DNA of 64,000 bases from positions 1 through 64,000 of the IMG/VR virus record IMGVR_UViG_3300001357_000001; one strand, written 5' to 3'. The number at the start of each line of letters is the position of its first letter. The stretch's first letter is position 1. The notes under the pieces were generated by a model. That model was not told the origin of the DNA. It searched no databases and was given only the letters and a program-made list of their open reading frames with translations. The DNA is from a virus (Duplodnaviria > Heunggongvirae > Uroviricota > Caudoviricetes). Made by a program: the position numbers and the translations under genes. Below are positions 4,316-60,309 of this stretch, one piece after another.

Positions 4316-4352
4316 CTATTATATATAAAACTTAATATTTAAAATATTAATC

Positions 4353-5159
4353 ATGAGTAATTTAGCTGATAATTTTTTAATGATTTATATTGAAAAGTTA
4401 AAATATTTTAATTATTCTAAACATACTATTAGAGATTATTCGCATTATTTTGAAAAATTTTTGATTTATGTTAATAAATATCCTCAACATCTAACATCTA
4501 ATGATTTCGAGAATTATTTATTAAACTATAAATTTTCATCAGTTTCTCAACAAAATCAAATAATTAACGCATTAAAGTTTGGATATGAAAAAGTTTTAAA
4601 TAAAAAATATAATAAAATTGATTTTCAAAGACCAAGAACCGAGAAAAAAATACCACAAATAATTGATAAAGAATTTCTATTAAATAGAATACCAAAAATC
4701 AAAAATATTAAACATAAGACAATAATATCTTTAGCATTTAGTGTAGGATTAAGAGTTTCAGAAGTAATTAATTTAAAAATAAAAGATATTGATTCTAAAA
4801 GAATGATAATTAATATTTATCAAGGTAAGGGTAAAAAGGATAGAATTGTTCCGTTGTCAGAAAACATTTTAAATTTATTGAGAGAATATCATAAACAATA
4901 TAAGCCAAATGAATATTTATTTAATGGTCAAAAATTACAACAATATTCACCAGAAAGTTGTAATAAAATAGTAAAAAAATATTTAGGTAATGAATATCAT
5001 TTTCATTTACTTAGACATAGTTGTTTTACTACATTATTAGAATCAGGAACAGATTTAAGAATAATTCAAAAATTAGCTGGTCATTCATCAAGTAAAACTA
5101 CGGAAATTTATACTCATGTAAGCACTAATTTATTATCCAAAATTAATTTACCAATATAA
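4353..5159 (+). CDS. Tyrosine site-specific recombinase (XerC/D-like phage integrase family)
   Basis: C-terminal catalytic signature HLLRHSCFTTLLESGTDLRIIQKLAGHSSSKTTEIYTHV (HxxR ... Y); conserved Arg in the SVGLRVSE box. Confidence 0.85.
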   Translation: MSNLADNFLMIYIEKLKYFNYSKHTIRDYSHYFEKFLIYVNKYPQHLTSNDFENYLLNYKFSSVSQQNQIINALKFGYEKVLNKKYNKIDFQRPRTEKKIPQIIDKEFLLNRIPKIKNIKHKTIISLAFSVGLRVSEVINLKIKDIDSKRMIINIYQGKGKKDRIVPLSENILNLLREYHKQYKPNEYLFNGQKLQQYSPESCNKIVKKYLGNEYHFHLLRHSCFTTLLESGTDLRIIQKLAGHSSSKTTEIYTHVSTNLLSKINLPI

Positions 5160-5160
5160 T

Positions 5161-5190
5161 TGTAACATTTCACAACATTTTTCGTATAAT
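5161..5190 (+). promoter_or_regulatory. phage promoter-like motif, -35 TTGTAACA / extended -10 TTTCGTATAAT
   Basis: TGTAACATTTCACAACATTTTTCGTATAAT lies about 18 nt upstream of the ATG at 5208. Confidence 0.55.
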
Positions 5191-5228
5191 TGTAAAAATA
5201 ATTTCTAATGAATAAAATTAATAAAATA

Positions 5229-5267
5229 GAATCCCTCTCAAAAGATTTGATTATCGTGAGAGGGATT
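5229..5267 (+). other. perfect 11 bp inverted repeat (hairpin) inside the short leader ORF, ending just before the in-frame TAA
   Basis: GAATCCCTCTC-N17-GAGAGGGATTC. Confidence 0.6.
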
Positions 5268-5273
5268 CCGTAA

Positions 5274-5630
5274 GTGACAGGTTCGGGAAAATCAACCTTT
5301 GCTGGAATGGTTGGCAGAGCAATCTGTTGTGCTGATGATTATTTCACATATGGGAATGATTATCGTTGGTCACCAGATAAAGTAAGTGCTGCTCATGATT
5401 GGTCTCAACGTAAATGTAGACGTTTCATGAAAGCAGGTATTGAACGTATTGTTGTTGCTAATACCAGCACAAGAGTAAGAGAAATGCAACCATATATGGA
5501 TTTAGCTGAACAGTTTGGATATAGAGTATTCACAGTTATTGTTGAAAGTCGTCATGGCAATAAAAGTGTTCATAATGTTCCAGAAGAAACTCTGGAAAAA
5601 ATGAGAGAACGTTTTAACATAAAATTATAA
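5274..5630 (+). CDS. P-loop kinase of the polynucleotide kinase (PNK/AAA_33)-like type. The reading frame continues upstream to the ATG at 5208 but is interrupted by TAA at 5271
   Basis: GSGKST Walker A sits at residues 3-8 of the GTG-initiated ORF; the upstream in-frame peptide MNKINKIESLSKDLIIVRGIP looks like the missing beta-1 strand; GC content is higher than the surroundings. Confidence 0.5.
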   Translation: MTGSGKSTFAGMVGRAICCADDYFTYGNDYRWSPDKVSAAHDWSQRKCRRFMKAGIERIVVANTSTRVREMQPYMDLAEQFGYRVFTVIVESRHGNKSVHNVPEETLEKMRERFNIKL

Positions 5631-5632
5631 TT

Positions 5633-5986
5633 ATGAGAATGTGGATGGTAGACCCAAAAATTTTATGTAATAAACACTTGCTTGGAGAACATGGTGAGAT
5701 TCATAAACACAGGCATAATTTCGTAAAACAACATAGTATTACGAAAAGAGTCTCACCTGTTGTTCAAATTCAACCATCGGCAATGCAAAGCAGACATGAT
5801 GAACTTGCAGTAGAAATGTTGAGAAGAAATATGAATCATAAGTCTCCTTTTAAGCAACCAGATATATCATATCTTCCAACAAATGAAAGGTCTGTTGTTG
5901 TTGATATACAGAACTCAATTAAGGATTTAAGTAATAGATGTTCTGAATGTGCTAAACGAATAAATAATATGAATTATGTGTTATAG
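5633..5986 (+). CDS. denV: Pyrimidine dimer DNA glycosylase (T4 endonuclease V / DenV-like)
   Basis: NKHLLGEHGEI and RHDELAVEMLRRNMN align with T4 EndoV DQHLMAEYREL and RQIELIAECLKRGFN. Confidence 0.5.
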   Translation: MRMWMVDPKILCNKHLLGEHGEIHKHRHNFVKQHSITKRVSPVVQIQPSAMQSRHDELAVEMLRRNMNHKSPFKQPDISYLPTNERSVVVDIQNSIKDLSNRCSECAKRINNMNYVL

Positions 5987-7767: not shown

Positions 7768-8065
7768 AATATGGCTGGATATTTAAAAGAATTTAAAATT
7801 TTTGATTACGACATATTATTTGTCTTTCGGCATAGATATGAAAAAGATGATGATGGTGAAAAATTAATTAATACTTTTACCATGTGGAGAGAATGGCGAT
7901 TAGGATTTTTCTTTAAAAAAAATAAAGCCGTTGGAAAAAAGAACTTTAAAAACCCAAAAAAATGGAAAAACAATTTAGTAAATCATATTATGATTGGTAT
8001 TGATTTACTCTGGTGTAAAACATGGGTTACTATTAGTAAAGGAACAATTAAATTAGAAATAAAAG

Positions 8066-8863
8066 ATGAAAAATAATATTAAATTAGGACATCAAGCACC
8101 TAAAGGCTGGAGAGTTGATAGATTCAATAGTATTGAAATCAGTGGTGATTTACATTACTGTTTATCACATAATTTCGTATATGATTGTGAAGAAGAAGAA
8201 CGTAAACTTTATAACGCCCAGCCTTGTTATTATACTGATGATAGATTTACTGATACTATTCATAATTATTTTAAAAAAACTTATTTGTATTGGACACGTT
8301 ATTATGATATTAGTTTGAAAGCATGTATCAGAAGAACACTCCAAGTAAAAAATATTCCTGTTGGAACTATTGTCGAGTTCAAAAAAAGTTGGTATTATCC
8401 GAAAAGAAGAATTGATAATAGTTATAAATTTAAAATCAAGAAATTTAATCCTTTGGATATTAAATATGAAATTAACTTGCCAAAATATAAAAGAAATTTT
8501 GAAAATGACGAATTCTCTCAAAAATTAACAGAAGCACTTCGTGCTAATGGTTTCATTGTTGGTGTAAGTGAAGGAAACCCAAACTTTCTGTCTTCAATGA
8601 TTAGTACTGCTGCAGCATATACTGGTCAAGTAGTTCAAGAACAAGATGAAAATGGTCAAATAGCAGTTGCATACGGACATGGAAGAATTATTGGATTTAG
8701 TACTGGTGAAAATAGTTTCAGAGGCTATGGTAATGGTTGTGAAAACATACTTTATGATTTTCATGAAGAATTTAATAAATGGAGTCAATGTATTGAAATT
8801 CATAAATCAACACCAATTGATGAAATAATTAAAGAATTAACTGACGATAAAATAGATAAATAA
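8066..8863 (+). CDS. hypothetical protein
   Basis: 265 aa ORF; its start overlaps the upstream stop. Confidence 0.45.
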   Translation: MKNNIKLGHQAPKGWRVDRFNSIEISGDLHYCLSHNFVYDCEEEERKLYNAQPCYYTDDRFTDTIHNYFKKTYLYWTRYYDISLKACIRRTLQVKNIPVGTIVEFKKSWYYPKRRIDNSYKFKIKKFNPLDIKYEINLPKYKRNFENDEFSQKLTEALRANGFIVGVSEGNPNFLSSMISTAAAYTGQVVQEQDENGQIAVAYGHGRIIGFSTGENSFRGYGNGCENILYDFHEEFNKWSQCIEIHKSTPIDEIIKELTDDKIDK

Positions 8864-12680: not shown

Positions 12681-12694
12681 AAATACTAAGGTAA

Positions 12695-12732
12695 GAACTG
12701 AATAAAGCACAAGCCGAGTTCAGTTCTTTTTA
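12695..12732 (+). terminator. rho-independent terminator
   Basis: GAACTGAA-N16-TTCAGTTC followed by TTTTTAT. Confidence 0.65.
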
Positions 12733-12733
12733 T

Positions 12734-13023
12734 GCTTAGTGATAGGTTCTTTTATATATGATATAAAAAGAAAAAACGTTAACAACGTTTTGCTTGACAA
12801 AAGCAATACTATTAAGTAAACCGCTTCTTCCATAAAATCTCAAGTCTTTTTGGCTTCCTTTAAAGAAGACCATGATGTAGATTAAGTTACTCAAAACCTA
12901 ACATGGATTGAGAGAATTACTCTACTAAAAAGGACTTAGTTTTTGCCCTTGTCTTTGTAATGGAAGAAGGTCTTTGACTTTAGCGTTGACCTTGACATAG
13001 ACTATATAAATCTATCACTAAGC
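12734..13023. repeat. 290 bp imperfect palindromic non-coding element with nested inverted repeats
   Basis: Outer inverted repeat GCTTAGTGATAG / CTATCACTAAGC; inner CTTCTTCCAT-AAAATCTCAAG matches the reverse complement of CTTGTCTTTGTAATGGAAGAAG; the region is ORF-free and more GC-rich than its surroundings. Confidence 0.5.
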
Positions 13024-13466: not shown

Positions 13467-13979
13467 ATGGATAGAGAAGAATTTAATAAGAAATTAAAAA
13501 ACGAATTAGCTATTTCAGTTATACAGGGTAAAAATACTAGTAATTTATTAAAATTATATGAAGAACTATCCATTGAAATATCGGAATCAAAAAGATATTT
13601 AAATTATAATAAAAAATTAAGTGAATTATCTGTTGAAGAAGCAATTAATGCATGCATGAAACATGGTATTAATTTTAATCCTAAAAAAAGTAATAATGCT
13701 GTTGCATACATGATTCAAATAATAAAAAGTAGTTTCGCCAATACTTATTTAAAAGAATATAAAAAGAAATATCGCATGACCGAAGAAGACTTTAATGAGT
13801 TTATTAATGAAATAATTCCTCAACAACTATTCCACGTAGAACCACAAGACATTGATGATGAAAGTGGTGCTAAACTAGATGAAGTAATATTAGTAAGTCT
13901 TATTGCTAATAGACCAAGTTGTTTGAAACATAAACCATTGCAATGGTTTATTGATTATTTTTTAATTTATAATAAATAA
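13467..13979 (+). CDS. hypothetical protein
   Basis: 170 aa ORF. Confidence 0.4.
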   Translation: MDREEFNKKLKNELAISVIQGKNTSNLLKLYEELSIEISESKRYLNYNKKLSELSVEEAINACMKHGINFNPKKSNNAVAYMIQIIKSSFANTYLKEYKKKYRMTEEDFNEFINEIIPQQLFHVEPQDIDDESGAKLDEVILVSLIANRPSCLKHKPLQWFIDYFLIYNK

Positions 13980-34574: not shown

Positions 34575-34604
34575 TTATACGATATTAAATTTAAAATGTT
34601 ACAA
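34575..34604 (-). promoter_or_regulatory. phage promoter-like motif upstream of rIIB
   Basis: reverse complement of TTATACGATATTAAATTTAAAATGTTACAA. Confidence 0.55.
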
Positions 34605-34746
34605 TTTATATTGGTAAATTAATCTTTGATAATAAATTTGTATTCACTTGTGTGTATATTTCAGTGGTTTTATATGAATATACTTATAATCAGTTAGTTT
34701 ACCCATTTTTGTAATACTTTTTATTAATATAACAATAAGTTAGGCT

Positions 34747-34887
34747 TCATTTGCCAACGCTCTTAAATATCTTTTTATACCATTTGTTTTCTTTTCTGCA
34801 TTCAGGGCAGCCACTTTTCCCACTTGGGGTTGTTGCGTATTTTCCGTGCTTTTTACAGTTATTCCATCTATAATTTCCTAATTTCAT
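34747..34887 (-). CDS. 46 aa zinc-ribbon protein (cassette ORF; not in the ORF track)
   Basis: MKLGNYRWNNCKKHGKY ... CPECRK; starts 31 nt after an attC-like GTTAGGC core. Confidence 0.35.
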   Translation of the reverse strand: MKLGNYRWNNCKKHGKYATTPSGKSGCPECRKENKWYKKIFKSVGK

Positions 34888-34918
34888 AATCTTGTTTTTA
34901 TCCCACCGCACAAAAACG

Positions 34919-35050
34919 AAAGCCTAACAATGTACATAGGTAATTTGCCGTTTTGTTTTGGTAGTTTAGTTTATAATTTAATCTTTATCTCGTTCTAGTT
35001 GCTTCGGTTCGTCAAGCAGGGGCAAACATACCCATGTACTCAACGTTAGG
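34919..35050. repeat. attC-like element A
   Basis: GCCTAAC-aatGTACATaGGTAaTTTGCC ... GGCAAAcaTACCcATGTACtcaac-GTTAGGC; sits between the stop at 35070 and the start at 34887. Confidence 0.6.
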
Positions 35051-35069
35051 CATAAAAATTCCCGCTTTG

Positions 35070-35339
35070 TTAGCGGTCATTGCCGAAAACATCATCTTTC
35101 CATTTTTCCCATTCATCGGAAACATCAGAATCATCGTGCACACCAGATAATATACAACCATATCCGTTATTGTAAAGAAAGTCTGGCAAAGGCAACGAAC
35201 CGCTAACAACAAATAAACGTAATAAAAGTTTACGTGCTTGTAATTCAGTGATTTCGCCCCTTTCGAGCCATTGTGCTACTTCTAAAATTTTGTCTTTCAT
35301 ATCTTTTACTACGTTTATTTGTGAACCGTTATGGTGCAT
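35070..35339 (-). CDS. hypothetical protein (cassette ORF)
   Basis: 89 aa, coupled to the ORF at 35339-35596. Confidence 0.4.
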   Translation of the reverse strand: MHHNGSQINVVKDMKDKILEVAQWLERGEITELQARKLLLRLFVVSGSLPLPDFLYNNGYGCILSGVHDDSDVSDEWEKWKDDVFGNDR

Positions 35340-35596
35340 TAAGGAATATCCAACTTAAATTTTACCTCCTTAATATCAATCCATCCATCATATTCGTCTG
35401 GTCTATGCCAGTTTTGAGAATTATCCTCTTGGAACATACCATCTTTATAAAACCCAAATCCTATCGTGAGTCCTTCGTTGCTTATAAGCATTACCCTTGT
35501 CATATTAACTGGGCGTTGTGTCATATCGTTCATAAAAAATAACGCACCATAACATTTTGTATAAATCAGTGGCGTTATGTGCTTAATTTTAACCAC
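35339..35596 (-). CDS. hypothetical protein (cassette ORF)
   Basis: 85 aa. Confidence 0.4.
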   Translation of the reverse strand: MVKIKHITPLIYTKCYGALFFMNDMTQRPVNMTRVMLISNEGLTIGFGFYKDGMFQEDNSQNWHRPDEYDGWIDIKEVKFKLDIP

Positions 35597-35880
35597 TTAG
35601 CTACTAAATTGCTTTTGTGCGGTTCGACAGTTAGTAGCTCCTAATCGCCACCGCTTCATACAATTTACCGTTATGCACAATTAAATTATTACTTATAGTG
35701 TTTATTATAGTATTCTTCACCTACTTGCTCTTTTAAGTATTCATCAGCGTCCATTCCATATAAATCATAGTCGGTCAATTTATCTGTGTTATTGTTCCAC
35801 ATACCAACAAAAGCAAGTATCAAGGCAAGTAATATTATTAAAGCTATTGTTATTCCTATCCATTCCATAATTTTAAAAGT

Positions 35881-36002
35881 ACCTAACAATGTGTATAAGC
35901 AATAGCCGTCAGGCGTTTTTACTATTGCAGTTGTTTAATTATTAATTTTGTTTCTATCTAGTTGGTTCGTGTAGGCTACTGCTCATACACTCGTCCGTTA
36001 GC
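35881..36002. repeat. attC-like element B
   Basis: ACCTAAC-aatGTGTATaAGCAaTAGCC ... GGCTActgCTcATACACtcgtcc-GTTAGCA; compensatory changes relative to element A preserve the hairpin; the 3' core overlaps the stop of the gene at 36005. Confidence 0.55.
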
Positions 36003-36004
36003 AT

Positions 36005-36361
36005 TCATTTGCCAACGCACAGCTTAAAGCAACTAAATTTTTTCCTGTGTTCATTTCCTTTTTCATCAATAAGCACATATCTTTTACGACCTCTCTTGCC
36101 TACGTAATCTACAATTTCGCACTCTCCTATGTTTTCAATTGTAGCCTTTTTTCCTACCAAATGCAATCCTCCTAAACTTTCACCTTTCATCGCATGTTTA
36201 ATATTACGTTTTGGTTGTCGCTTTTCAATTGAATTATAACATCCTTTCTGCATTGTTCTAGGATAGCCTACTGCTTCTCCAATATATTCACCTGTTTGTT
36301 CATCTAAGATACCATCAAGTATCATGTCTGCTATGTCTCCCATAATATTTAATTTTTGCAC
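36005..36361 (-). CDS. hypothetical protein (cassette ORF; true start probably the ATG at 36343)
   Basis: C-terminus KLCVGK is encoded by the same nucleotides (GCGTTGGCAAATGA) as the C-terminus of the 46 aa ORF. Confidence 0.4.
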   Translation of the reverse strand: MQKLNIMGDIADMILDGILDEQTGEYIGEAVGYPRTMQKGCYNSIEKRQPKRNIKHAMKGESLGGLHLVGKKATIENIGECEIVDYVGKRGRKRYVLIDEKGNEHRKKFSCFKLCVGK

Positions 36362-36380
36362 CGCCCACGCTCAAAACGAA

Positions 36381-36480
36381 ACGCTAACAAGCGGTCATAG
36401 TTAATAAAGCCAATTAAGTTTAGTTCGTTGTAGGTTGCGGTAGTGGGTGGCTTTACTAACCATACCGCAAGCCGTTAGGC
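36381..36480. repeat. attC-like element C
   Basis: CGCTAAC-aaGCGGTcATaGTTAaTAAAGCCA ... TGGCTTTAcTAACcATACCGCaagcc-GTTAGGC. Confidence 0.6.
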
Positions 36481-36490
36481 ACAATAAAAA

Positions 36491-36637
36491 TTACTGCTCC
36501 AACTCTTTTAGTTTAGCTTCATTTTCCTTAATCAACTTATCAAGTAAACCTTTCATTACTGGTGGTAGTTGTACCTGCGGTGCATTTAATAACTTTGCGA
36601 CTTCAATATTCATTTCTAATAATTCTTGTAGTTTCAT
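36491..36637 (-). CDS. 48 aa helical protein (cassette ORF; not in the ORF track)
   Basis: MKLQELLEMNIEVAKLLNAPQVQLPPVMKGLLDKLIKENEAKLKELEQ. Confidence 0.3.
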   Translation of the reverse strand: MKLQELLEMNIEVAKLLNAPQVQLPPVMKGLLDKLIKENEAKLKELEQ

Positions 36638-36810
36638 ATTCGTAATTTTTACAGATGCCTAACAGCAAGTATAAAACATGCCTGTCGTGCATCTAAGTTA
36701 ATATTTATGTTAATTTCAAATTAATTGTTTCAATTAAAGTTTGTGTTAGCACGTTTCATACTTGCGTACCGTTGTAGCTTAATTGACAGCTCGCCATCAC
36801 ACATGCTCCA

Positions 36811-40485: not shown

Positions 40486-42774
40486 CTATGATAAATCCAT
40501 AGCAAGCTGTAAAATTGTTATTTGTTCTTCTTCTAAGTTTTCTGCATTCCAAGGAAGATTAAAATAACTTAATGTTTTAGTATTTTTCTTTTGCAATTCT
40601 TCAACTTCATCTACCCATTCACAAAATTCTTTTTGTTCTTTAGTAGGTTTTACTTTTTGAAAATCAAAATATTGACCTAATTCACTTCTATAATGTTGTA
40701 TTCTACTATCTCTAATATTATTAGGAATTGTATTGATAAAGGCATTAATTTTCTCAATCTTCTTTCCCCAATTATCATCAATTTTATTAATAAAACCTTT
40801 ACGATAAAAATCGGCAAGACCTTGATATTTTTCAACAACACTATATATTTGAAAATATTTCAATATCATGTCTTCTTTTCTCGGCAACATATAGGTAAAG
40901 AAATCTTTTATGTGTCTGGCATTCTTACAATACTTCAAATATTTAGTATTGTTTTTCGATACCTGTATAAACATAATGCTCTTTTTATCACTATCACTTT
41001 TCAAATTTTTTCTATAATCAATACGTCTGACAACAGCATCAGCATCAAATAAGAGTTTAAACAACCTAACTGCTTCATCAAGTTTATAATCATCATCAGT
41101 AGTACCATAGAAAATCGGCATATTATAATCAAATAAATTACCTAACTCAACTCTGTCTCTGGAATAACCGCCAATAAATTTAACAGGAATAGTCTTTTTT
41201 CTAAGTTCAGAACTAAGTTCGTTTTTACGTTTACGACTTTCAATAAATTCTTGTGGTACTTCTAATTCATCATAATCAATTCCATTCTCACGAATGATAT
41301 CGAAATATTCTTCTTGCATATCAATTAATTCCTGAACAAAAGGTAGTGTATTACCTTTGTCATCAACAATATCATCAAGATGTACATTGAATACGTCAGC
41401 AATATCAGAACGTGACCACTTACTAATTATTCTTTTCTTAATAATATAGTATGTCTCGAACTCACTCTTAAGATATGATTGCTTAATCATTTTACGATTA
41501 AACTCACCATCAACATATACTATGTTATTCTTATTTACAATCGTCTCATATCCACCTTCAAATCCGTCTCTACTTGCATAATAACCATATCTTCTTCTAG
41601 GCTTTTTACCATAGGTTTTTGCATCAAAGAAAAATCTAAACAATTGTTTGTCATTAGGCATTTTAGTAAATTGATACTTGAAGTTTGAGAAGTCAATATC
41701 TTTTTGAGTAATTAGATTTCCTACGTACATTGACTTGTTATTAGGAAAAACTAATTTACCGAAGTCATGCTTAACCTGAAAATATTCCTTTAATGTAACA
41801 ATGTCTTCATATTGCTTACTAATTAAAGTAATAATTTCATTCTTAGCTGCTTCTAACTTCTTCTTCAACATTTTGATTGTAGTCTCACTATAATCAAGAC
41901 TCTCACGACTAACTGTAACACCTATGTCACCTACTTCAAGTTTTAGTGCAATTGGTAGACTGTAATCGCTTGAATGTAAATCTAATGCATCATAATCAAT
42001 CGGATAAGCGACTTTACCTAAACACACGTGCATGTTGTTACTATAGTCATCACCACGAAATAAGAAGTTCTTACCTCTGATTATCAGATAATCATTAGTT
42101 AATGTATCATGTTGATATGTGTCTTCAAAACCTTCAAAAATGATGTTTTCGAAGTAATAAAGTTGTCTCACCATTTCTTTAGCAAAAGTGCTAATATCTT
42201 TTTCAAGTACTGGAACTTGGATTTCAGTACCATTTCTTTCTTCTGTTGGTTCTTCATGAAGTTTTGAAATTCGAGGTGTATGTTTACCTTCATATATATG
42301 ATATATGTATTTAATACCATTAAAAACAGTTATAATTTGATATGAATTATCATATTCTGCTTCACCTAAACCTATTTTACGTTTATATGCTAACGGGGTC
42401 TTCGAACCCAACCCAAACGCACCAATCTGGTCATTACTATCACGTTTAGTACTACTAAACATCACAGAAAATATTGTATCTATTCTTTGTGGTGATATTC
42501 CAACACCATAATCAATAAAACTAATATAATGAGTACCCGTTGTATTATCTTGATGTTTTTTTATTAAAACAGGGGCATTAGCTCCTGCTTCAACATGACT
42601 ATCAAAACAATTCGATGTTATCTCACGAACAACACTACCAATAGGATTACTATAAATGTTTTTTGAAAACATTTGAAAAATAATGCTTTGTGAATCATTA
42701 GATAATGTAATATCTTTTTCTTCGGTTGTAGTCAAAACATCAACATCGGAATAACTATTAATATCGTATTTCAT
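40486..42774 (-). CDS. rIIA: rIIA-like protein with an N-terminal GHKL (Hsp90/MORC-type) ATPase domain
   Basis: N box EITSNCFDS, G1 box FIDYGVGIS, G2 box IGAFGLGSKT; 762 aa, comparable in size to T4 rIIA. Confidence 0.55.
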   Translation of the reverse strand: MKYDINSYSDVDVLTTTEEKDITLSNDSQSIIFQMFSKNIYSNPIGSVVREITSNCFDSHVEAGANAPVLIKKHQDNTTGTHYISFIDYGVGISPQRIDTIFSVMFSSTKRDSNDQIGAFGLGSKTPLAYKRKIGLGEAEYDNSYQIITVFNGIKYIYHIYEGKHTPRISKLHEEPTEERNGTEIQVPVLEKDISTFAKEMVRQLYYFENIIFEGFEDTYQHDTLTNDYLIIRGKNFLFRGDDYSNNMHVCLGKVAYPIDYDALDLHSSDYSLPIALKLEVGDIGVTVSRESLDYSETTIKMLKKKLEAAKNEIITLISKQYEDIVTLKEYFQVKHDFGKLVFPNNKSMYVGNLITQKDIDFSNFKYQFTKMPNDKQLFRFFFDAKTYGKKPRRRYGYYASRDGFEGGYETIVNKNNIVYVDGEFNRKMIKQSYLKSEFETYYIIKKRIISKWSRSDIADVFNVHLDDIVDDKGNTLPFVQELIDMQEEYFDIIRENGIDYDELEVPQEFIESRKRKNELSSELRKKTIPVKFIGGYSRDRVELGNLFDYNMPIFYGTTDDDYKLDEAVRLFKLLFDADAVVRRIDYRKNLKSDSDKKSIMFIQVSKNNTKYLKYCKNARHIKDFFTYMLPRKEDMILKYFQIYSVVEKYQGLADFYRKGFINKIDDNWGKKIEKINAFINTIPNNIRDSRIQHYRSELGQYFDFQKVKPTKEQKEFCEWVDEVEELQKKNTKTLSYFNLPWNAENLEEEQITILQLAMDLS

Positions 42775-42827: not shown

Positions 42828-43649
42828 TCATTTAATCGTCTTTTTTATTGAAAATCCTTTACCACAGTCTTTACATTTAAATCTAATAGAATTATTTCTT
42901 TCACCATTTTTTAATATATTAGGACTATTACAAGTAGAACAACACATATTTCTATCTAAAACTTTATTAACTGGTTTATAATTTAAACATTTTTCTGCTT
43001 TTCTTTTTAATGATATAGTTGAATCATTATACATAAATTTAATTAATTTAAGTATTTCAGATGTTTTAATAAATGATAAATTATAATATGTTTGTTTACC
43101 TTTTCCTTTAGGTGGTTTTACAATAATTTTCCACGATTTCATATCATGTGTTTTCAAATAGGAATTAATTTCATATATAAATTCTTTAGCAACACAACTA
43201 AATTCGATGACTATTAAATTTCTTCTTTTGGCTCTTCTATAAACACTACCATCAGCATCAAAAAATCCTCTAATAAAATGTCGTATTAATTCTGATTTAA
43301 TATTCGGAAGTCTTAATTCATTTGCATTCTCATATGATTTTCTTGGGTATATACCATTTGATAATAAATCCTCATATAATTCTTTAGATGATTTTGAAAG
43401 ATATATTTGTTTTTTCGAATTTTCATTATATTTTGAATAATCGAAGTTACCTACATTAAAAAAAGGGAAATATTCTCTTAATTGATAAATTAAATCTTTA
43501 TCGATAATATTAACACTAATTTTGGTTAAATATCTTATTCTACCCGTCTTCTCCTTATATGTTGTTATTGTACCATCACCATAAAGAAAACCTAATAAAT
43601 ATGCTTTTTCCTGACTATCTATTCTTTTTAATTCATTATTGTACTTCAT
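42828..43649 (-). CDS. LAGLIDADG homing endonuclease (double motif) with a C-terminal zinc ribbon
   Basis: YLLGFLYGDGTI and IRGFFDADGSV; C-terminal CCSTCNSP ... CKDCGKGF. Confidence 0.75.
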   Translation of the reverse strand: MKYNNELKRIDSQEKAYLLGFLYGDGTITTYKEKTGRIRYLTKISVNIIDKDLIYQLREYFPFFNVGNFDYSKYNENSKKQIYLSKSSKELYEDLLSNGIYPRKSYENANELRLPNIKSELIRHFIRGFFDADGSVYRRAKRRNLIVIEFSCVAKEFIYEINSYLKTHDMKSWKIIVKPPKGKGKQTYYNLSFIKTSEILKLIKFMYNDSTISLKRKAEKCLNYKPVNKVLDRNMCCSTCNSPNILKNGERNNSIRFKCKDCGKGFSIKKTIK

Positions 43650-49727: not shown

Positions 49728-50906
49728 TTAATCAAAATTAAAATATTGTTTGTTCATTGCTATTCTATCTTTTGATATGCTCATGAACATTCCCGCACTG
49801 ATTTTAATTAATCTCCAACCCAATTTCATCGTACTCTGATGACAATTCTGGATATAATCAAATATTATCTGAATTTGTTTGTCGGTCATCTGTACATTAG
49901 CTTTATCTATTTTTTCATTTAAACATCCTGCAAAATGGACATTATTGCCATGTATTTTAACCCAACCCTGTTGTTCTAACCAAACATCTGGATTAACCTT
50001 ATTTCCGTACTTATCTTCTTCATTAGGAACAATACCTTTTTCTTGCAGGGCATCGGCAATTTGATTATGTAACATATTAGCAATTTCACCATTTAAAGCA
50101 TAATACTGTCCTTCTGGACTCAGCCATCCCGCACTATAATTATCTAATATGTCAACGGGTTCAATACCTTCTTCAATCGTTTTATTAATTTCTCTCGTGG
50201 CATTAAGATAATTGGTTAGTTCTGATGCTTCTTCAAAATTAAAATCAACCATATCACCAACGATTCTCTTAACACTATCAATCATTAATAATGCTTCCCC
50301 AAGTTCGTATTCAATATCATTTTTTTCAACATCAGTTAATTGATTATGAAATATTTTCGATAAATCTTTAATTGTAGTAAATATCTTAAATGATGTTTCG
50401 ATATATTTTTTTGCAAGTATTGCACCATCATATGCTGTAGATATTACCTCGTCTTCAAGTAATATTTCTAATGCATCATCACCTTTTAGATTACCACCAA
50501 ATAATAATTTTAACCTCGATATAGGAATGTCAATATTAAATTTAGTTCTGTATCTAAATTTTCGACTAACTAAATCCAATATGGTTTTCATTTCTTCACC
50601 ATTATCGAAGATTTCTTTACATTTTTTTACCGACCATTCGGCAATATCAAAAACAGGATAATCTACATGATTTTCATTACGTTCAGTATTTACATTAACT
50701 TCTTCACCACCTTCACATACTTCGATAACATAATCACCTTTAATCACTTTTAATGCCATTTCAACTGGAATACCTTGTAAGCCTTCTGTAATGGTTTCAA
50801 CACCTTTTTTTACATCATAATTATACATGATATGTTCTTGTGCTACCTGCGCAAGTAATATTCCAAATGTCTCGCCTAATCTCATGTGTAATACTTGTGT
50901 GCTCAT
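49728..50906 (-). CDS. hypothetical protein (start adjusted to MSTQVL; the upstream part of the supplied ORF contains the promoter)
   Basis: about 392 aa. Confidence 0.45.
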   Translation of the reverse strand: MSTQVLHMRLGETFGILLAQVAQEHIMYNYDVKKGVETITEGLQGIPVEMALKVIKGDYVIEVCEGGEEVNVNTERNENHVDYPVFDIAEWSVKKCKEIFDNGEEMKTILDLVSRKFRYRTKFNIDIPISRLKLLFGGNLKGDDALEILLEDEVISTAYDGAILAKKYIETSFKIFTTIKDLSKIFHNQLTDVEKNDIEYELGEALLMIDSVKRIVGDMVDFNFEEASELTNYLNATREINKTIEEGIEPVDILDNYSAGWLSPEGQYYALNGEIANMLHNQIADALQEKGIVPNEEDKYGNKVNPDVWLEQQGWVKIHGNNVHFAGCLNEKIDKANVQMTDKQIQIIFDYIQNCHQSTMKLGWRLIKISAGMFMSISKDRIAMNKQYFNFD

Positions 50907-50932
50907 AATTTTGTGTTTTTGATTATAATTAT

Positions 50933-50962
50933 TATACGAAGAACAACAATTTTTGTTACAAA
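50933..50962 (-). promoter_or_regulatory. phage promoter-like motif (minus strand)
   Basis: reverse complement of TTATACGAAGAACAACAATTTTTGTTACAA. Confidence 0.55.
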
Positions 50963-51438
50963 AAAACCCTTTCAAGTCATGACTTTCTTAACATAAACTT
51001 GAAAGGGTTTTAGTACAGTCGCAATAGGGTGCGAACCCTTCTGTACCAACCATTGCCGTAGTCACTTTCTTGGCAGTTGCTTTACGTCATGTAAACCGCA
51101 ATCCCACAGCAATCAAGTGGGGATATTTTGGAGAGCGTGGCACAACTTTTCACCCGACTCCGCTATTTCGGACACCAAGCGAATTTTCGGTTGGATTTCT
51201 CGTGACGATGGAGGGATTCGAACCCACAATAACCTTAATCATAATTAATATTCAATACTGTCTATCATGTTAATGTTTACGTAATTATCAACATGATTTC
51301 CTTCTCGTCCATTAATTAGACAACCATAACTCATGCGCCATCATTATGGTAATGGTACTCTCCCATCTCAAAGCTGACAAGGAAGCGACTTTGAACCAAT
51401 TTGTCCACACCGTCATAAATATATAAGAACGTTTTTTG

Positions 51439-51530
51439 TGGTATTGAAAGGAATCGAACCTCTCTCCAGAGTAAAAATCTGGCACATTGCCACGTAGTAT
51501 CACGTTAATACTACTCCATGCTTCAATACC
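51439..51530 (-). tRNA. tRNA-like gene, anticodon UUU (Lys) predicted, with an atypical 21-nt hairpin insertion in the D-loop region
   Basis: minus strand reads GGTATTG ... CCAGA-TTTTTAC-TCTGG ... AGAGGTTCGATTCCTTT-CAATACC-A; 7 bp acceptor stem; canonical GGTTCGATTCC T-arm. Confidence 0.45.
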
Positions 51531-52286
51531 ATTATTATGTCATGATGAGTCTTTTAATTCCTCTGAATCTACAGTCCTTAACATCACTGATGTTTTACTG
51601 GAATCCAATTATAATTAAACTCGCATCTTATTGTTGCATTTCATCAAGACGTTCTCTTTTAGCATATCTAATTAAAATCTTGAGTTTAAAACCCTAACGG
51701 ATGTCTGCGCTTGACTCCATTTGAGGCACATGAGAAGATTCTAACCCCTTACCTATCGCATATTACGAAATCCCTTACTTGGTAAGGTAAATAGAGATTA
51801 CGGCAACAATATTTTAAAATGAATAATCTGCCTTGCCAAGGGTAAGAATGCCTACGCTAAGATTTCTTAGGTCTTAGAAGGAGTGTCTACCTCTTATATG
51901 ATTATTAGTCATACTGTACTAACAATTCTTAATCCATCTGAACACCATTTCGGCTTATGGTCTAATAAAACATCCATCACTCAATTAGCAAAGCATTTAA
52001 CAACGATGTTACTCGGAGTTACTATCTTGGGTCTTTTATTGTAATAGACATCGGATTTATTTGTTCAGCTTCATCAGATTATTCATTATATTTTAAAAAT
52101 TACACTATACCAGACAGCCATCCCGATATCTGCCCCTTCTGAGGTTAAGGAACGATACTAGTTTATTATCTCTTGACGTACACTAGCGTAAATTCACACA
52201 GGTTGATTTTTATGGGAAATTACCCCCCAATGGTGATTTTATCTAATAATGTAATTCCGATTTCAATATTTTCAAAGAACTAATTA

Positions 52287-52316
52287 TTATACGAAGATAA
52301 TAAAAAAATGTTACAA
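52287..52316 (-). promoter_or_regulatory. phage promoter-like motif oriented to transcribe the ORF-free tRNA-like region
   Basis: identical to the promoter at 49697. Confidence 0.5.
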
Positions 52317-53296
52317 TTTACCACCAGAAAATTCCTCCCCAAATAAGAGTGAAAACAATTATTAATATAAATGCAATAAAACCTTCTCCACCACTTTCAT
52401 ATTTCACTCCACTACTAAATAAAGTACCACCAGAATTTTCACTAAGATAATCTATTAACCACCAGATTCCAAGTACTATTATTACTATTGCAAAAACTAC
52501 TATGCTCCAATGTATCATAATTATTTAATTTTATTTGGATAATCAATTATTACTATATCTCGGTATTGTTTCTTTAACCTTCCTTTTTCATCAAAATTTT
52601 CATTTACAATTTTTTTGATTTTATCTAAAGTAACTGAATCTTCTATTTGAATTTTATTTGTAGTTAATTTATCCATTTTTAATTTAAATCAATTATTTCA
52701 CTTCCAATATCATATTTGAATTTGAATTGTTTTGCAATTGAATGAGTTAGATATGGATTAGTAAAAACCTTGTCTTCCAGAACTGCTTTCTTCACGTCTT
52801 CCAGACTTGCCATTCCAAAATCAAAAGACTCACCATAAAAAGTAAAGATTTTATTTTCCAAATCTACTTTATAACTACCACCACCTCTAACCAAATCTAT
52901 GTTTGTTGCTAGTTCTTTATGAAAACTGCATTTACCTAAGATTAAACAATTACCTAGTTCATCATTGGTTTCAATAATATATTTTGGGAATAAATCCATA
53001 GTTTTTAATTAAAAATTACATAAAATCGTTATATTCAACATACTTTTCGTATTTTTCTTCATATTCATTAATGAAGTTTCTTCTAATACTAATCATATCA
53101 TCAACAAGACTTCCACATAAACCTTCGTTTCTGCGTAATAAATATATTGATACTTCACAAGTAAGTATTTTTTGAAGTGCTTGTGCTTGTTCATAAGGAA
53201 CTAAACCATCAATACCTTCTTCATCATAATCAACTTCTTTTCCTTGACGGTCAAAATACTGATTATATGTGTCTAATAAATCTACGTACATAATAT

Positions 53297-56552: not shown

Positions 56553-57015
56553 GTTCTAATGATAATTTTCTCTGCTTCTCTGCAATACTTTTTGCTTTCT
56601 TATTTTTAAATATATGATATGGAGTATCGCCTTTCTCACTATTACATTTAAAACAACACTCAACAAAATTTGAATTATCTAATATATTATCAACTTTACT
56701 TGCAGGTATCATGTGGTCGATTGTAATACAATCTTTAATATTTTGTCTGTTCTTATTTCTTTTAGGAAGATTATAGACTGGCTTATGACAATAATGACAA
56801 GTCCAATGACCATTTCTTCTCACTTTTCTCAAAAAATGTCTTTTAACAATGAATAAATATCGCCAATCATTTTCCTGACTATAACTCACATCTAAATCCT
56901 GATAATAATTTCTTAATAATAGTGATGCAGAATATGATTTTGGACTTGAAGGTATTGTTAATATGACATGATTTAACCTTCTGTTTTTCGATATGTTATT
57001 AAAAACAATTTTCAT
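56542..57015 (-). CDS. HNH endonuclease
   Basis: CHYCHKPV ... TIDHMIPASK ... CCFKCNSEKG. Confidence 0.65.
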   Translation of the reverse strand: MKIVFNNISKNRRLNHVILTIPSSPKSYSASLLLRNYYQDLDVSYSQENDWRYLFIVKRHFLRKVRRNGHWTCHYCHKPVYNLPKRNKNRQNIKDCITIDHMIPASKVDNILDNSNFVECCFKCNSEKGDTPYHIFKNKKAKSIAEKQRKLSLELVT

Positions 57016-57354
57016 TTATTTTTTTAGTTCTTTTAATATGCTTTTGCAAATCATAGTTCTTTCCATGTTTTCTGTCGGAGGAAACCAGAATAAACCATCA
57101 TCGTCAATAACAGTACCAACATAATCATAAAAAATATCTGGTTTATGTTTTAATAATTCTGGAATTAATTCAAAATTATTGCTATTAACATCAAAATAAT
57201 ATTGAAAAAGATTACAAAACCCAAAATCAAATAAATCCGTAGCATCATCAATGACTTGAATTTCCTGTGTGTATATTTTCAAACAAAACTCAAAAAATCT
57301 TATCTTCTGAGCAACGCTCATTTTACCTTTATAATATCTAATTTCTTCAATCAT
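57016..57354 (-). CDS. hypothetical protein, paralog of the ORF at 63656-63982
   Basis: shared AQKIRF, IPELLKHKPDIF / IPEFLQYKPDTF and FWFP / FWFK. Confidence 0.45.
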   Translation of the reverse strand: MIEEIRYYKGKMSVAQKIRFFEFCLKIYTQEIQVIDDATDLFDFGFCNLFQYYFDVNSNNFELIPELLKHKPDIFYDYVGTVIDDDGLFWFPPTENMERTMICKSILKELKK

Positions 57355-57357
57355 AGC

Positions 57358-57669
57358 TTATTTTTTAAAAAATGTTTTATAATTCGTCTTATGTATTGGA
57401 TTACTACAATTTCCTTTGTGCGTGAGAAAATCACTACGATTACCATTTACAACCCCAATATAATCACAACCATCAATCTTATATTGATAGATTACCGTAT
57501 ATTGATTTGGAAACCTACTTTGAATAGTATCAATTGGCTGTCCTTCTATCCAGTTCTCACCAATAACTTCATTAGGTCTATCATTATCACTTATTCCACA
57601 AGCAATTAATGTAATAAGACTTAAAATTAATAATGTCGTTAATATTTTAATGACTATGTTTTTATTCAT
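57358..57669 (-). CDS. lipoprotein
   Basis: Signal peptide with lipobox LIAC. Confidence 0.45.
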   Translation of the reverse strand: MNKNIVIKILTTLLILSLITLIACGISDNDRPNEVIGENWIEGQPIDTIQSRFPNQYTVIYQYKIDGCDYIGVVNGNRSDFLTHKGNCSNPIHKTNYKTFFKK

Positions 57670-57715
57670 ATCTTTTATTTTAAAAGTTTGACATTATATT
57701 TCTAATTTATTGTTA

Positions 57716-57745
57716 TTATACGAAGATAATAAAAAAATGTTACAA
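57716..57745 (-). promoter_or_regulatory. phage promoter-like motif (minus strand)
   Basis: TTATACGAAGATAATAAAAAAATGTTACAA. Confidence 0.55.
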
Positions 57746-57788
57746 AAAATGAGAGAGCAGTAGTCTGGTTAACTAGCGATACTCTCTC
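57744..57788 (-). terminator. rho-independent terminator abutting the promoter -35; loop AGTTAACCAGACT
   Basis: minus strand GAGAGAG-N24-CTCTCTC followed by TTTTTT. Confidence 0.55.
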
Positions 57789-58590
57789 AAATTAATATAA
57801 ACCCTTAATGACTCAAATATACGAAAAAGACTTATGTTTGTTACAATTCTCGTCCTTATTTTTTCTTATTTAAGAAGACTATTTTCATTGTTCTTAATAA
57901 AAAAAGTCAATAATTGCACTGCCAAGCATTTTAAATAAAATACCGACAAAGAATAAAAGCATAAGTAATACTGTTGTAATAATGCCTGTTAATATTATTT
58001 TACCTGCATCAATACGATAATCTCTTTTCTCTGGTAACGACATATCTCTTACATAATGATTGTAAGGAATAATACCTATTAAATATAAGATAATAAGTAC
58101 TGACATAATACTGATTAAACCAACTAAAAAATCTATCATAACTTCTTATTTAAAAATTATTAATCATATTTTTTTAATTTTTCTTCAACACTTTCTAAAA
58201 TAGCAAGTATTTCAGGAGTCTGTTTTGCTTTGCCTTCAATTAAAACTGGATTAGCAAGTACTTCTTTTAAAAAAGTAGTACTGAAATTATCAATATTATT
58301 TCTATCGGCAACAGGATGCATATAATGACCATCATTTTCATCACCAAAAATATTGATAAGCATTGCAATTAAGTCTTTCTGTTCGTCATTAAGACCTAAT
58401 TCTTTTAACCATACAACAGGTTTTGATTTATCGTCTTCCATTATAATTTTTATTTCACAATAAGGTATATGAATAATACGAAGCGGAGAACGTAATTGCT
58501 ATTAACTTAAAACTCCCACAAGGCAACGTTTTTAATTTAGTGACACTATGGTGAATCCGCAGTATTCATATACTTTATCGTTATTACATA

Positions 58591-58620
58591 TTATACGATT
58601 ATTAATTAAAATTGTTACAC
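58591..58620 (-). promoter_or_regulatory. phage promoter-like motif (minus strand), followed by a 150 nt GC-richer leader
   Basis: reverse complement of TTATACGATTATTAATTAAAATTGTTACAC. Confidence 0.45.
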
Positions 58621-60309
58621 CACCGTTTCAACTTATGATACCATTTATTATAAATCAAATCTCTTCTTTTTCTTAACACAATACAATTATCACAATTACA
58701 ATATTCCTTTGGGTTCGAACCCCCTACACCTTCAGGCAATATTGCTAAATTATGTTTATGCACTTTTGGTAGCTTTCGTTTCATATTTTTATTTAAATTT
58801 ACCAATTTCTTTTCAAAACAGGAAGTTCGAAAATAACTAAATCTTCTTCTCGATAATCTCCATCACCAACCCATATGTCGGCAGGAACAAAATATGATTT
58901 ATAATCATCTTTGATTTCATAAGTATTAATACTTGCAAATGCCTTATGTGTTGGTTTCCAGAACTCAAACCACTTACGATTAGTTTTTGCTAAAACAATT
59001 AAGTTATCTGAGGTCTTATATGTGCTCCAAGGAAATGGATGTACAGTACTATGTGGATAAAAACCATTTTCTTCTTTTAAATCATTCAGGCATTGATTCC
59101 AATCATCTAAATTCCTGATATTTTTAAAATAACATGGACTATCTGAACCAGTACAAGAACCAATATGTTTTAACTCACCTTGTTCCTCTACGAATATTTC
59201 GTTATAAAATGCCATAATAATTAGTCGTTTTTATATAATTTTTTTATCTGTTCCGTAATTACAATTATAATATCGGAAATTCTTTTGTTTTGCTCAGAAT
59301 ACCTTATCATTGTCTCATTATTTGATTCATCAACAACAATCTTAGTACCTTTATGTTCGACACTTATTTTCATAACTTTTATTTAAAATTACCAATTGAT
59401 TTCAATTTCATATTCCCCTGCTTCAAGTAGACCTTTTTTATGTAGGTCATTGGCAAGTACTTCTAAATTAGGATAGAAATTTCGTTGCCAAAACAATTTA
59501 ATTTCCCAATCCTCTGTTCTATCATCAACAGGTTCTTTAGGGTCACGTTTTAACCATGATTCGAATTTAACACCCATTTCACTACCATTAACTACTTCTG
59601 GAATGCTTTCAGCCATATTAGCATCGTTTTCATCAGCTTCATCATAAGGAACACTTAGATGAACCATACCTCTACCTTGACAACCATCTTGTTGTTGAAA
59701 ACTATATGGTTTACCATAGGTTTCCTTAACTAAATCATCCCAATCAAATACATCAATTATTTTTTTTGTTTTTACCTTAATCATAATCACAATTTTTTTA
59801 GAACAGTACTTACTTTATTTTTCATTGCATTTACCTTCGAAACAAATGTTTCAGTATCTAAGTCCGAAGTAGCTTTTGCTTTCAAATGTACAGGAATGTC
59901 TTCACTTAATGCCTGTAATTGATTTTCAAGTAGACTTAAGGTCTTGTAAATACCATCAGTATTTTTTTCATTTAACTTATTAAGTACATCAGAACTATAT
60001 ACGCTTTTTGAACCCACACCTGTTTCAAGAACGTTTGTGATTTCTAACCATAAGTGATGTACGTCTTCAAAATCATCAGCTTTCATTGGTAGTGATTTCT
60101 GAAGTTGTAAATTATTTATTGAAAAAGAACTACCACTATCTTGCCAACCACCATAATATGAGTATTGAAGTACGTTATCTTCACCTAAAACAACACTTAA
60201 GGTCATCTTATTCCCAAATTGTTCATTAAATGAGTCTGAATACGATTCATCATATAGTCTGAAAATAATTAGTCTCTTTTTCATAATATTTTTGTATTAC
60301 TTATAGTAG

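Follow-up and report, generated by a model that had tools for sequence, protein, structure and literature searches.

Positions 52314–50956 (minus strand) of the window, the 64,000-nucleotide (nt) stretch of a jumbo-phage genome analyzed here (IMG/VR record IMGVR_UViG_3300001357_000001, positions 1–64,000), run from a predicted phage promoter to a strong predicted terminator and appear to form a noncoding RNA unit. Read 5′ to 3′, its transcript would carry a leader of ∼480 nt, three elements shaped like transfer RNA (tRNA), a pseudoknotted RNA of ∼190 nt, and an intrinsic terminator. The three tRNA-shaped elements have tRNA ancestry and probably cannot decode. On comparative evidence, the pseudoknotted RNA belongs to a previously uncatalogued RNA family. 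The reading that we favor, with somewhat more belief than doubt, is that of one promoter-to-terminator unit, possibly two, in which nondecoding tRNA frames act as processing or stabilizing modules and are combined with the conserved RNA.

An earlier, sequence-only reading of the window had described this place as ∼1.3 kb free of open reading frames (ORFs) and as a probable stable-RNA locus directly downstream of a phage promoter copy. The first description is borne out; between 52317 and 50976 neither strand holds an ORF longer than 67 amino acids (aa), and the small ORFs present look spurious. The gap is flanked by a 66-aa ORF ending at 52318 and a 392-aa gene starting at 50906, and its GC content rises to 0.38–0.49 against a background of ∼0.28. 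Six-frame fragments of the region, searched for coding remnants with tblastn against related phages and the rest of the window, show no similarity, and blastn of the region against 50,697 deposited phage records gave zero matches. An identical 1.4-kb copy is present in the independent run SRR4030107. The second description is supported by a minus-strand promoter candidate, GTAACA-17-TATAAT at 52314–52286, which is a copy of the repeated phage promoter TTGTAAC...TTCGTATAATAATTA.

tRNA-Shaped Elements in the ORF-Free Region

Default ARAGORN reports 0 tRNA and 0 transfer-messenger RNA (tmRNA) genes in the window, and Rfam 15 gives nothing at gathering score in the region and only noise, with no tRNA match, at E ≤ 10. 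When introns are allowed (ARAGORN -i), exactly one call is made in the 64-kb window, a "tRNA with 116-nt intron" that corresponds to the element we term #2; the same setting calls nothing in 40 dinucleotide-shuffled versions of the window (2.6 Mb) or in 1000 shuffles of the region. In addition, 10 ordinary phage tRNAs served to build a covariance model, R1, which we ran over the whole window with filters off. Its top three matches, at 26.5, 20.0, and 16.6 bits, all lie in the region on the minus strand, and the fourth reaches 9.7 bits. For comparison we used loci of related phages, 80 around distant homologues of the 392-aa gene and five added later (L093–L097), in which the best tRNA-like elements score ∼45 bits with R1. 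The tRNA-like signal is real and nonrandom, and it is visible only with relaxed or purpose-built models and in the relatives. Taken literally, the check proposed in the sequence-only reading, that tRNA or noncoding RNA models should score here, finds default ARAGORN and Rfam silent; the relaxed models and the relatives give the signal. A loose descriptor of acceptor plus T-arm was swamped by AT-rich noise. DNA patterns for the frames of elements #1 and #2 matched only two ordinary and unrelated tRNAs in viral contigs, a tRNA-Lys (L009) and a tRNA-Cys (L010), and patterns of the same kind gave 0 matches in metagenome contigs and 0 in genome contigs.

Element #1 (51439–51530, minus strand), which is among the best R1 matches, had been noticed before as a tRNA-Lys-like fold, and each part of that fold is present. 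The acceptor GGTATTG/CAATACC pairs 7/7 (51530–51524 with 51446–51440), the D-stem is GCAT/ATGT (51521–51518 with 51487–51484), the anticodon arm is CCAGA-TTTTTAC-TCTGG (51482–51466), and a canonical T-arm, AGAGG-TTCGATT-CCTTT (51463–51447), is followed by a discriminator A at 51439. The extra hairpin reported in the D-loop is also there: GTAGTAT-TAACGTG-ATACTAC (51514–51494), a perfect 7-bp, 21-nt hairpin placed between positions 16 and 17, a stretch of the D-loop in which tRNAs tolerate length variation. The anticodon stem and the UUUUUAC loop are identical to those of the bona fide phage tRNA-Lys in L009, and the derivation of #1 from a tRNA-Lys is supported. Noncanonical features are A8, G14, a variable region of just 2–3 nt, and a D-loop of 30 nt. 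We note that L009 (IMG/VR UViG_3300035698_012482), a contig of an unrelated phage, carries 16 tRNA genes in an array at 1651–5767; the call for one of them has a 4-nt anticodon, and several others (Lys, Trp, His) are longer than normal or present in duplicate.

Element #2 (51203–51414, minus strand) is a tRNA frame with a large insert. Its T-loop (GGGTTCGAATCCC, 51224–51212) had been seen by the sequence-only reading and taken for an orphan; the loop is present, and it is not an orphan, for CATCGTC (51210–51204) pairs with GACGGTG (51414–51408), 190 nt upstream, to make a 7-bp acceptor, and a D-arm follows the 5′ strand. The 5′ acceptor strand and D-arm together span 51414–51387, and the D-arm, TG GAC-A AATTGGTTCAA A-GTC, is canonical in T8, A14, G18G19, and A21. 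The T-arm lies at 51227–51211, where R1 gives 20 bits, and the discriminator A at 51203; the acceptor and T-arm also occur in the ordinary phage tRNA-Cys of L010. Where the anticodon arm would be, there are ∼155 nt of hairpins, and a constrained fold predicts several of them in the center with a closing helix CCTTGTCA/TGA-T-TAAGG or TTCCTT/AAGGAA.

Element #0 (51713–51796, minus strand) was overlooked in the sequence-only reading, as was the conserved pseudoknotted RNA at the GC-rich 3′ end. It is the third-best R1 match (16.6 bits, E = 0.011 for the whole window). Its acceptor CTCTATT/AATGGAG has 7 bp with one G-U and is followed by T8; the D-stem CCTT/AAGG is perfect, the D-loop lacks GG, and the anticodon-like arm is poor. 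The T-arm AGGGG-TTAGAAT-CTTCT is separated from the 3′ acceptor strand by ∼12 extra nt.

Taken feature by feature, the three elements depart from ordinary tRNAs in different ways. None reaches the thresholds of Rfam RF00005 or default ARAGORN. A 7-bp acceptor stacked on a 5-bp T-stem with a TTCRANN loop is found in #1 and #2; #0 has the acceptor but the loop TTAGAAT and its 12 additional nt. The core features (U8, A14, G18-G19, a D-loop of 7–11 nt, and a variable loop of at least 4 nt) are not assembled in #1 or #0, and #2 has those of the D-arm. A 5-bp anticodon stem with a 7-nt loop, U33, and a purine at 37 is seen in #1 and in neither #0 nor #2.

These features bear on whether the elements could be working tRNAs. 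We consider it unlikely that #1 is a functional tRNA-Lys(UUU) with a D-loop expansion, which might for example replace a host tRNA-Lys cut by an anticodon nuclease, and that #2 is a tRNA from which an intron is spliced. The intact 5-bp anticodon stem of #1, with its tRNA-Lys loop, would suit such a role, and so would A73 and the UUU anticodon, which are identity elements for lysyl-tRNA synthetase (LysRS), and the position of the hairpin at a length-variable point; but A8 and G14 replace the near-invariant U8 and A14, the variable region has just 2–3 nt, there is no Rfam tRNA match at E ≤ 10, and #1 with its hairpin deleted reaches just 98–101% of the default ARAGORN threshold. We know of no bacterial mechanism for removing a D-loop hairpin, and the counterpart of #1 in a related phage (L097) lacks the Lys anticodon loop. 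For #2, the ARAGORN -i call fits a tRNA with an intron, as did the suggestion in the sequence-only reading of a large intervening sequence. That suggestion is now weak; we tried 2,520 deletion variants, no single deletion restored a clean or credible anticodon arm, and the ∼190 different deletions that came near threshold gave inconsistent anticodons. There is no Rfam match to a group I intron in the region. An intron was rejected for #1 because its insert lies in the D-loop and not in the anticodon loop.

Other phages offer partial precedents for such tRNAs. Phage tRNAs are known to escape anticodon nucleases (PMC10264068). Lak megaphages, which are likewise huge, uncultivated, and low in GC, have tRNA genes of unusual length, overlooked or flagged by tRNA finders made for bacteria, with "enigmatic introns" of 79–114 nt (PMC6784885, Table S6); these inserts of ∼80–115 nt have no Rfam match either (Devoto et al. 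2019, PMC6784885). The Lak inserts, however, sit at 37/38 of canonical, otherwise normal tRNAs and themselves hold a tRNA-like minihelix (PMC6784885), whereas here the insert is found in the D-loop of #1, in or behind the T-arm of #0, and in place of the whole anticodon arm of #2, and the relatives have elements without that arm.

A tmRNA was also considered and rejected, since the acceptors of #1 and #2 lack G3-U70, no model matches, and no plausible tag is encoded. The tmRNA models find T-arm fragments only, at 10–14 bits against gathering scores of 47–84, and ARAGORN gave one sub-threshold "permuted tmRNA" call with an implausible tag. The likeness to tmRNA consists in a tRNA-like domain without an anticodon arm that is joined to a pseudoknotted RNA, and one element of a relative (L019b) has both G3-U70 and A73; but the window elements have no G3-U70 and no credible tag ORF, and the pseudoknotted RNA here lies 3′ of a complete tRNA-like element, not inside it.

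The Conserved Pseudoknotted RNA

Downstream of #2 lies the conserved RNA (51012–51202, minus strand, ∼190 nt), which was delineated by nhmmer, a covariance model (R2), a descriptor, and covariation, and is the only part of the region with significant sequence homologues in other phages. It is entered through the 8-nt linker CGAGAAAT (51202–51195) between the discriminator of #2 and the motif CCAACC (51194–51189). The conserved inner motifs GGGTGAA, GCTCTCC, and GGTTTACATGACG follow, and then CGGCAATGGTT at 51058–51048. In the predicted 3′ module, helix Pa (GGTACAG, 51047–41, with CTGTACT, 51018–12) encloses hairpin Pb (AGGG, 51039–36, with CCCT, 51029–26), and TCGCA in the Pb loop TTCGCA (51035–30) would pair with TGCGA (51023–19) to form a pseudoknot.

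The same layout recurs in the family. A discriminator is followed by a linker of 7–8 nt, (G/T)CCAACC, a variable core, CGGCnnnGGTT, the Pa/Pb module, and a terminator hairpin. The linker is CGAGAAAT in the window and L097 and CGAGAAAA in L019. In the module, a Pa of 6–7 bp surrounds Pb, whose TTCnnn loop pairs with the strand that immediately precedes the 3′ half of Pa. The pairing of (G/T)CCAACC with TGG(T)T of CGGCnnnGGTT, which closes a core of several helices, is found in the window at 51194–51189 and 51058–51048, and P1 and P2 are predicted in both subgroups of the family. We count at least 9 RNAs in 8 related jumbo-phage contigs, and a partial one in L076, a lower bound that comes from ∼0.9 Mb of related sequence.

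Several searches recover these members. A descriptor scan of 807 kb finds the module in the window (51051–51012), L019/L020, L039, L057 (two in tandem), L059, L062, and L067, with all remaining matches low-scoring and AT-rich. With nhmmer against all loci, the window is linked to L039 (E = 5e-8), L059 to L062 (3e-23), and L059 to L057b (1.5e-7); the window–L039 link was found with a 194-nt piece, and the whole 1.3-kb query missed L039. Model R2, built solely from four group-B RNAs, recovers L019 (44 bits), L039 (27.5 bits), and L097 (47 bits, E = 7e-10), and its best match in 14 kb of the window is 51079–51008 (17.1 bits, E = 0.002). A further model, R3, gives 30.9 bits to L039. The conserved RNAs have no match in Rfam 15, and the group-A motif has 0 matches in viral and genome contigs.

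The nested helix, hairpin, and pseudoknot are supported by covariation in the related phages. In an alignment of four RNAs made with MAFFT and RNAalifold and not fitted to the structure, 95.2% of cells are paired against 85.7% in shuffles, with 16 double-change pairs against 7.2 ± 1.8, and slid controls reach 31–47%. Because MAFFT and R3 misplace the register of the window module, the larger count used a hand-made excerpt alignment of eight distinct modules, pseudoknot included, which, being fitted by hand to the structure, leans toward it: 99.2% of cells are paired against 68.6% in shuffles, 15 of the 16 pairs show double changes, none of 500 shuffles reaches any of the measures, and slid controls give 28–47%.

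The RNA does not always follow a tRNA-like element. In L039, L059, and L057b it stands alone behind a promoter. The two tandem copies of L057 (1025–1203 and 1320–1483) differ in this respect, the first coming after a tRNA-like element and the second after a promoter only; the predicted start of the second lies ∼5–7 nt before CCAAC, which matches the 7–8 nt after the discriminator elsewhere. L076 has CGGCAATGGTT followed by Pa and Pb at 12687–12740 (R3, 23.8 bits), without an evident pseudoknot partner and 750 nt upstream of a tRNA-like element at 13488–13579, and may be a divergent family member.

The arrangement invites comparison with GOLLD and ROOL (Rfam RF01998 and RF03087), which are also pseudoknotted RNAs encoded by phages and prophages next to tRNAs or tRNA islands. 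GOLLD can carry tRNAs in a linker between variable 5′ and conserved 3′ parts (PMC12286853), a layout that the region resembles. We nevertheless think it very unlikely that the region specifies a single RNA of this type, 1.3 kb long, with a variable 5′ part, tRNAs in the linker, and a conserved 3′ domain, that might multimerize. GOLLD and ROOL are much larger (about 580 and 800 nt), and here the conserved part is just ∼170–190 nt. Their models give no match even at E ≤ 10 in 50900–52400 of the window or 200–520 of L039, and none at gathering score in six relatives. The occurrence of the conserved RNA alone behind its own promoter in three cases also speaks against a single large RNA, as do the 5′ 480 nt, which have neither a homologue nor notable predicted stability.

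Related Phages and the Possible Role of the Unit

Homologues of the 392-aa protein mark a widespread jumbo-phage clade with genomes of ∼320–365 kb; a single-protein search of viral contigs gave no relatives. The 80 loci (685 kb) yield no tRNA with default ARAGORN. R1 picks out 12 tRNA-like elements there, every one on the gene strand, and others in the five loci added later. The acceptor stem, the T-arm, and usually the D-arm of these elements are canonical, and it is the anticodon arm that varies. It is absent from L077 (58 nt) and L067/L094 (60 nt), shrunk to a 3-bp stub in L019b, replaced by two hairpins in L021 and L019a (which differ by one compensatory C-G to T-A change), and replaced by a long hairpin in L057a and L062. 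A frame of the same type as #2 is found in L095 (17671–17452, minus strand) and, identical, in L096 (12085–11866); between its D-arm and T-arm, and within an acceptor TCAAGCG/CGCTTGA, it holds an insert of ∼150–215 nt with no detectable homologue, and ARAGORN -i reports this frame as a tRNA whose "intron" measures 148 nt.

The placement of the elements in the clade is also regular: they stand right behind promoters or 7–8 nt before the conserved RNA. The latter spacing, from discriminator to CCAACC, is seen in the window, L019, L067/L094, L097, L057a, and L062. The L095/L096 element lies directly behind a promoter and just before an ATG, and L077 is a stand-alone tRNA-like mini-gene. In L021 (3344–3441) and L019 (6675–6772) a 98-nt element right behind a promoter ends 22 nt before an ATG, which puts a tRNA shape at the 5′ end of a messenger RNA.

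The best comparator is L097, from a 126-kb contig of NCBI assembly GCA_043955495.1, where an ORF-free gap of ∼770 nt has the order seen in the window: promoter, a leader like window 51625–51531, tRNA-like elements (i), (ii), and (iii), conserved RNA, and terminator. Element (ii) has 5 nt in place of the anticodon arm, (iii) consists of an acceptor stem and T-arm only, and the conserved RNA is entered via A-CGAGAAAT-CCAACCG. Element (i) and #1 share the T-arm and 3′ end (A-T-AGGTTCGATTCCTTTCA-G-T-G-CCAC versus AGAGGTTCGATTCCTTTCAATACCAC) and differ at two acceptor pairs that are changed on both sides (GGCACTG/CAGTGCC versus GGTATTG/CAATACC), and on this comparison they are likely orthologous. 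Element (i) has a normal D-loop without the hairpin and a long arm instead of the Lys anticodon loop, so that only the acceptor/T branch, and not the decoding end, is constant between the two.

RNase P, RNase Z, and the CCA-adding enzyme accept minihelices of acceptor and T-arm, RNase P also reads the T/D elbow, and none of them needs an anticodon arm. The parts kept in the elements are those that these host enzymes need, which suggests selection for recognition by the processing machinery rather than by the ribosome. In the reading that we favor, the elements would be sites at which the primary transcript is cut and would fix the termini of the RNAs transcribed with them, in particular the 5′ terminus of the conserved RNA, and could protect 5′ ends; the fixed 7–8-nt spacing and the placement behind promoters and in 5′ untranslated regions (UTRs) point to these functions. 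The elements may also accumulate as stable tRNA-like RNAs themselves, as the stand-alone mini-gene of L077 suggests, and #2 and its L095 analogue could be natural "tRNA scaffolds" carrying an RNA of ∼150 nt. A wider proposal, which we regard as tentative and rather doubtful, is that this clade has turned tRNA genes into anticodon-less frames that punctuate, scaffold, or stabilize noncoding RNAs and 5′ UTRs and are coupled to a new RNA class; that RNA could be a counterpart of T4 RNAC/RNAD or a miniature relative of GOLLD/ROOL, and the frames may be decoys for host enzymes that act on the acceptor/T branch of tRNA.

Several observations weigh against the processing-module reading. Cutting of the transcript by RNase P and RNase Z is purely an inference. 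None of #0, #1, #2, and the leader has a significant homologue when searched against all loci, and the similarity of #1 to L097 (i) is pairwise and collinear and is not significant against the whole locus set. R3 gives the window pseudoknot module just 11.7 bits, in a different register, and the eight-RNA alignment has the bias noted above. Folding energies of the region are not unusual. A tRNA-like element is evidently not required for the conserved RNA, given that L039, L059, and L057b have it alone behind a promoter, and the L077 mini-gene is easier to see as a product than as a signal for processing. Finally, in the closest relatives by the 392-aa gene (81%, 62%, and 44% amino-acid identity) the corresponding position shows no comparable gap, and only promoter copies are shared; the absence of the unit from the 81% and 62% relatives indicates that it is dispensable or mobile.

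Some of these points would suit decay, in which the elements are a drifting remnant of a tRNA array with random indels and nothing but the downstream conserved RNA is functional. We regard this as unlikely. The lack of homologues for the elements and the leader, the absence of the unit from the closest relatives, the ordinary folding z-scores, the noncanonical core positions, and the low model scores are all as decay would have them, but the acceptor stems are all 7/7, the D, T, and anticodon stems nearly all intact, and the inserted hairpin is a perfect 7 bp. Compensatory changes separate #1 from L097 (i) and L021 from L019a, elements without an anticodon arm recur at fixed positions in many relatives, and a consensus promoter and a perfect terminator are retained. 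The "pseudogene" that the sequence-only reading had offered for the second T-loop therefore fits poorly, given the intact stems, the compensatory changes between #1 and L097, and the recurrence in relatives.

The same conserved parts, acceptor and T-arm, would also serve an anti-defense decoy, a tRNA shape that titrates attackers of the acceptor/T branch such as acceptor-stem nucleases and nucleotidyltransferase toxins, with #1, which keeps a perfect Lys anticodon stem-loop, directed at a tRNA-Lys anticodon nuclease. The location in an early-gene region beside rIIA/rIIB, the strong early-type promoters, and the 58-nt mini-gene of L077 are compatible with this. No defense-related partner was identified, however, and the decoy overlaps the processing-module reading wherever that reading has the elements as products, so that sequence alone does not separate the two; we think decoys quite unlikely as the explanation.

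Known Systems and Genome Context

The locus can best be seen as a phage stable-RNA operon that combines tRNA-derived frames with a member of an uncatalogued pseudoknotted RNA family. In T4, rnaD (species 2, 119 nt) and rnaC (species 1, 139 nt) lie directly downstream of tRNA-Arg in one transcription unit, and the unit described here may be a functional analogue of that tRNA-Arg–rnaD–rnaC cluster. Both cases place a small RNA downstream of a tRNA or tRNA-like gene in a large phage that carries rIIA (T4 myovirus-type); T4 rnaD begins 1 nt beyond tRNA-Arg, and the RNA of the window 8 nt beyond the discriminator of #2. Moreover, the end of T4 rnaC is formed by a canonical T-arm, CCGGG-TTCGAAT-CCCGG, together with a strand resembling that of an acceptor, a frame around a large body like that of #2. 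The roles of rnaC and rnaD are unknown (PMC3014915, PMC9697503). The two systems differ in that T4 has eight normal tRNAs and the window none, and in that rnaC/rnaD show neither the pseudoknot module nor the closing helix CCAACC...GGTT; R3 finds nothing in T4 69500–74500, and blastn of the region against the phage collection gives no match. Use of a tRNA shape for cutting by RNase P and RNase Z or for stabilization is familiar from MALAT1 mascRNA, mitochondrial tRNA punctuation, and synthetic tRNA scaffolds. Those are eukaryotic, organellar, or artificial, unlike the phage unit, and to our knowledge no phage example has been described as a tRNA-like processing signal.

Phage tRNAs and the structured RNAs that adjoin them (T4 RNAC/RNAD, GOLLD, ROOL) have resisted functional explanation for decades, and the present locus offers a compact comparable system in which a short RNA with covariation in 8–9 sequences lies 7–8 nt from tRNA-shaped elements. 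That the acceptor and T-arm are retained while the anticodon arm varies freely suggests a role in which tRNA-processing enzymes recognize the elements, and not a role in decoding. Genes of this kind escape standard tRNA and RNA-family annotation entirely, and many such RNAs may lie in stretches of huge-phage genomes that lack ORFs and are slightly raised in GC. If the elements were decaying tRNA genes, the tRNA part would be ordinary, and the conserved RNA family would still be new to RNA databases.

The remaining parts of the unit are the leader, a spacer, and the terminator. The 5′ leader (51797–52280, minus strand, ∼480 nt) has no ORF, homologue, or Rfam match and unremarkable folding z-scores, and it can form a predicted 16-bp long-range helix (52090–52075 with 51830–51815). 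One arm of this helix overlaps a candidate internal promoter, the sigma-70-like TTGGCA-17-TAAAAT at 51839–51811 (minus strand), and because this match lies just upstream of #0, the 1.3 kb may comprise two transcription units. Between #0 and #1 lies a spacer (51531–51712, minus strand) whose 3′ ∼95 nt (51625–51531; GGATTCCAGT, a variable hairpin, then AAGGACT...) resemble the leader of the first tRNA-like element in L097; the likeness is collinear and pairwise only and is not significant against the whole set of loci. The intrinsic terminator (50956–51011, minus strand) has a perfect 15-bp stem (51011–50997 with 50977–50963), a 19-nt loop, and a T7 run. Its folding z of −3.8 stands out, and z-scores elsewhere in the unit are uninformative.

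The contig of ∼348 kb that includes the window (ENA ERZ27249344, k141_72552) is that of an uncultivated jumbo phage and has a background GC of ∼28%, with genes on the plus strand to ∼27 kb of the window and on the minus strand beyond. The unit sits in a variable early-gene region near rIIA. Its neighbors are a LAGLIDADG endonuclease, a C5 methylase, a 762-aa protein resembling rIIA, and many small ORFs, and copies of a single promoter precede each of them; the same motif occurs at 50959–50931 before the 392-aa gene and before many genes of the coding strand. The LAGLIDADG ORF is free-standing (42828–43649, minus strand) and adjoins the rIIA-like gene (40486–42774, minus strand), and in the relatives the 392-aa anchor gene adjoins rIIA and rIIB.

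Three other gaps were noted in passing. L093 has 660 nt without an ORF (7806–8465) that show no similarity to the conserved RNA family and contain a T-arm-like match (7834–7892, 22 bits) and a terminator-like hairpin near 7970–8000. Window 34600–36800 (minus strand, ∼2.2 kb) has ORFs of at most 118 aa, a GC content of ∼0.35 against 0.28, and no Pfam, Rfam, or tRNA-model match; this may be a gene broken into fragments or split by an intron, or a further noncoding stretch. Within 57015–58799, a stretch without an ORF of at least 120 aa, lies a perfect GC-rich palindrome, GGGGGTTCGAACCCCC (58711–58723), which is T-loop-like and scores 9.6 bits with the tRNA model.

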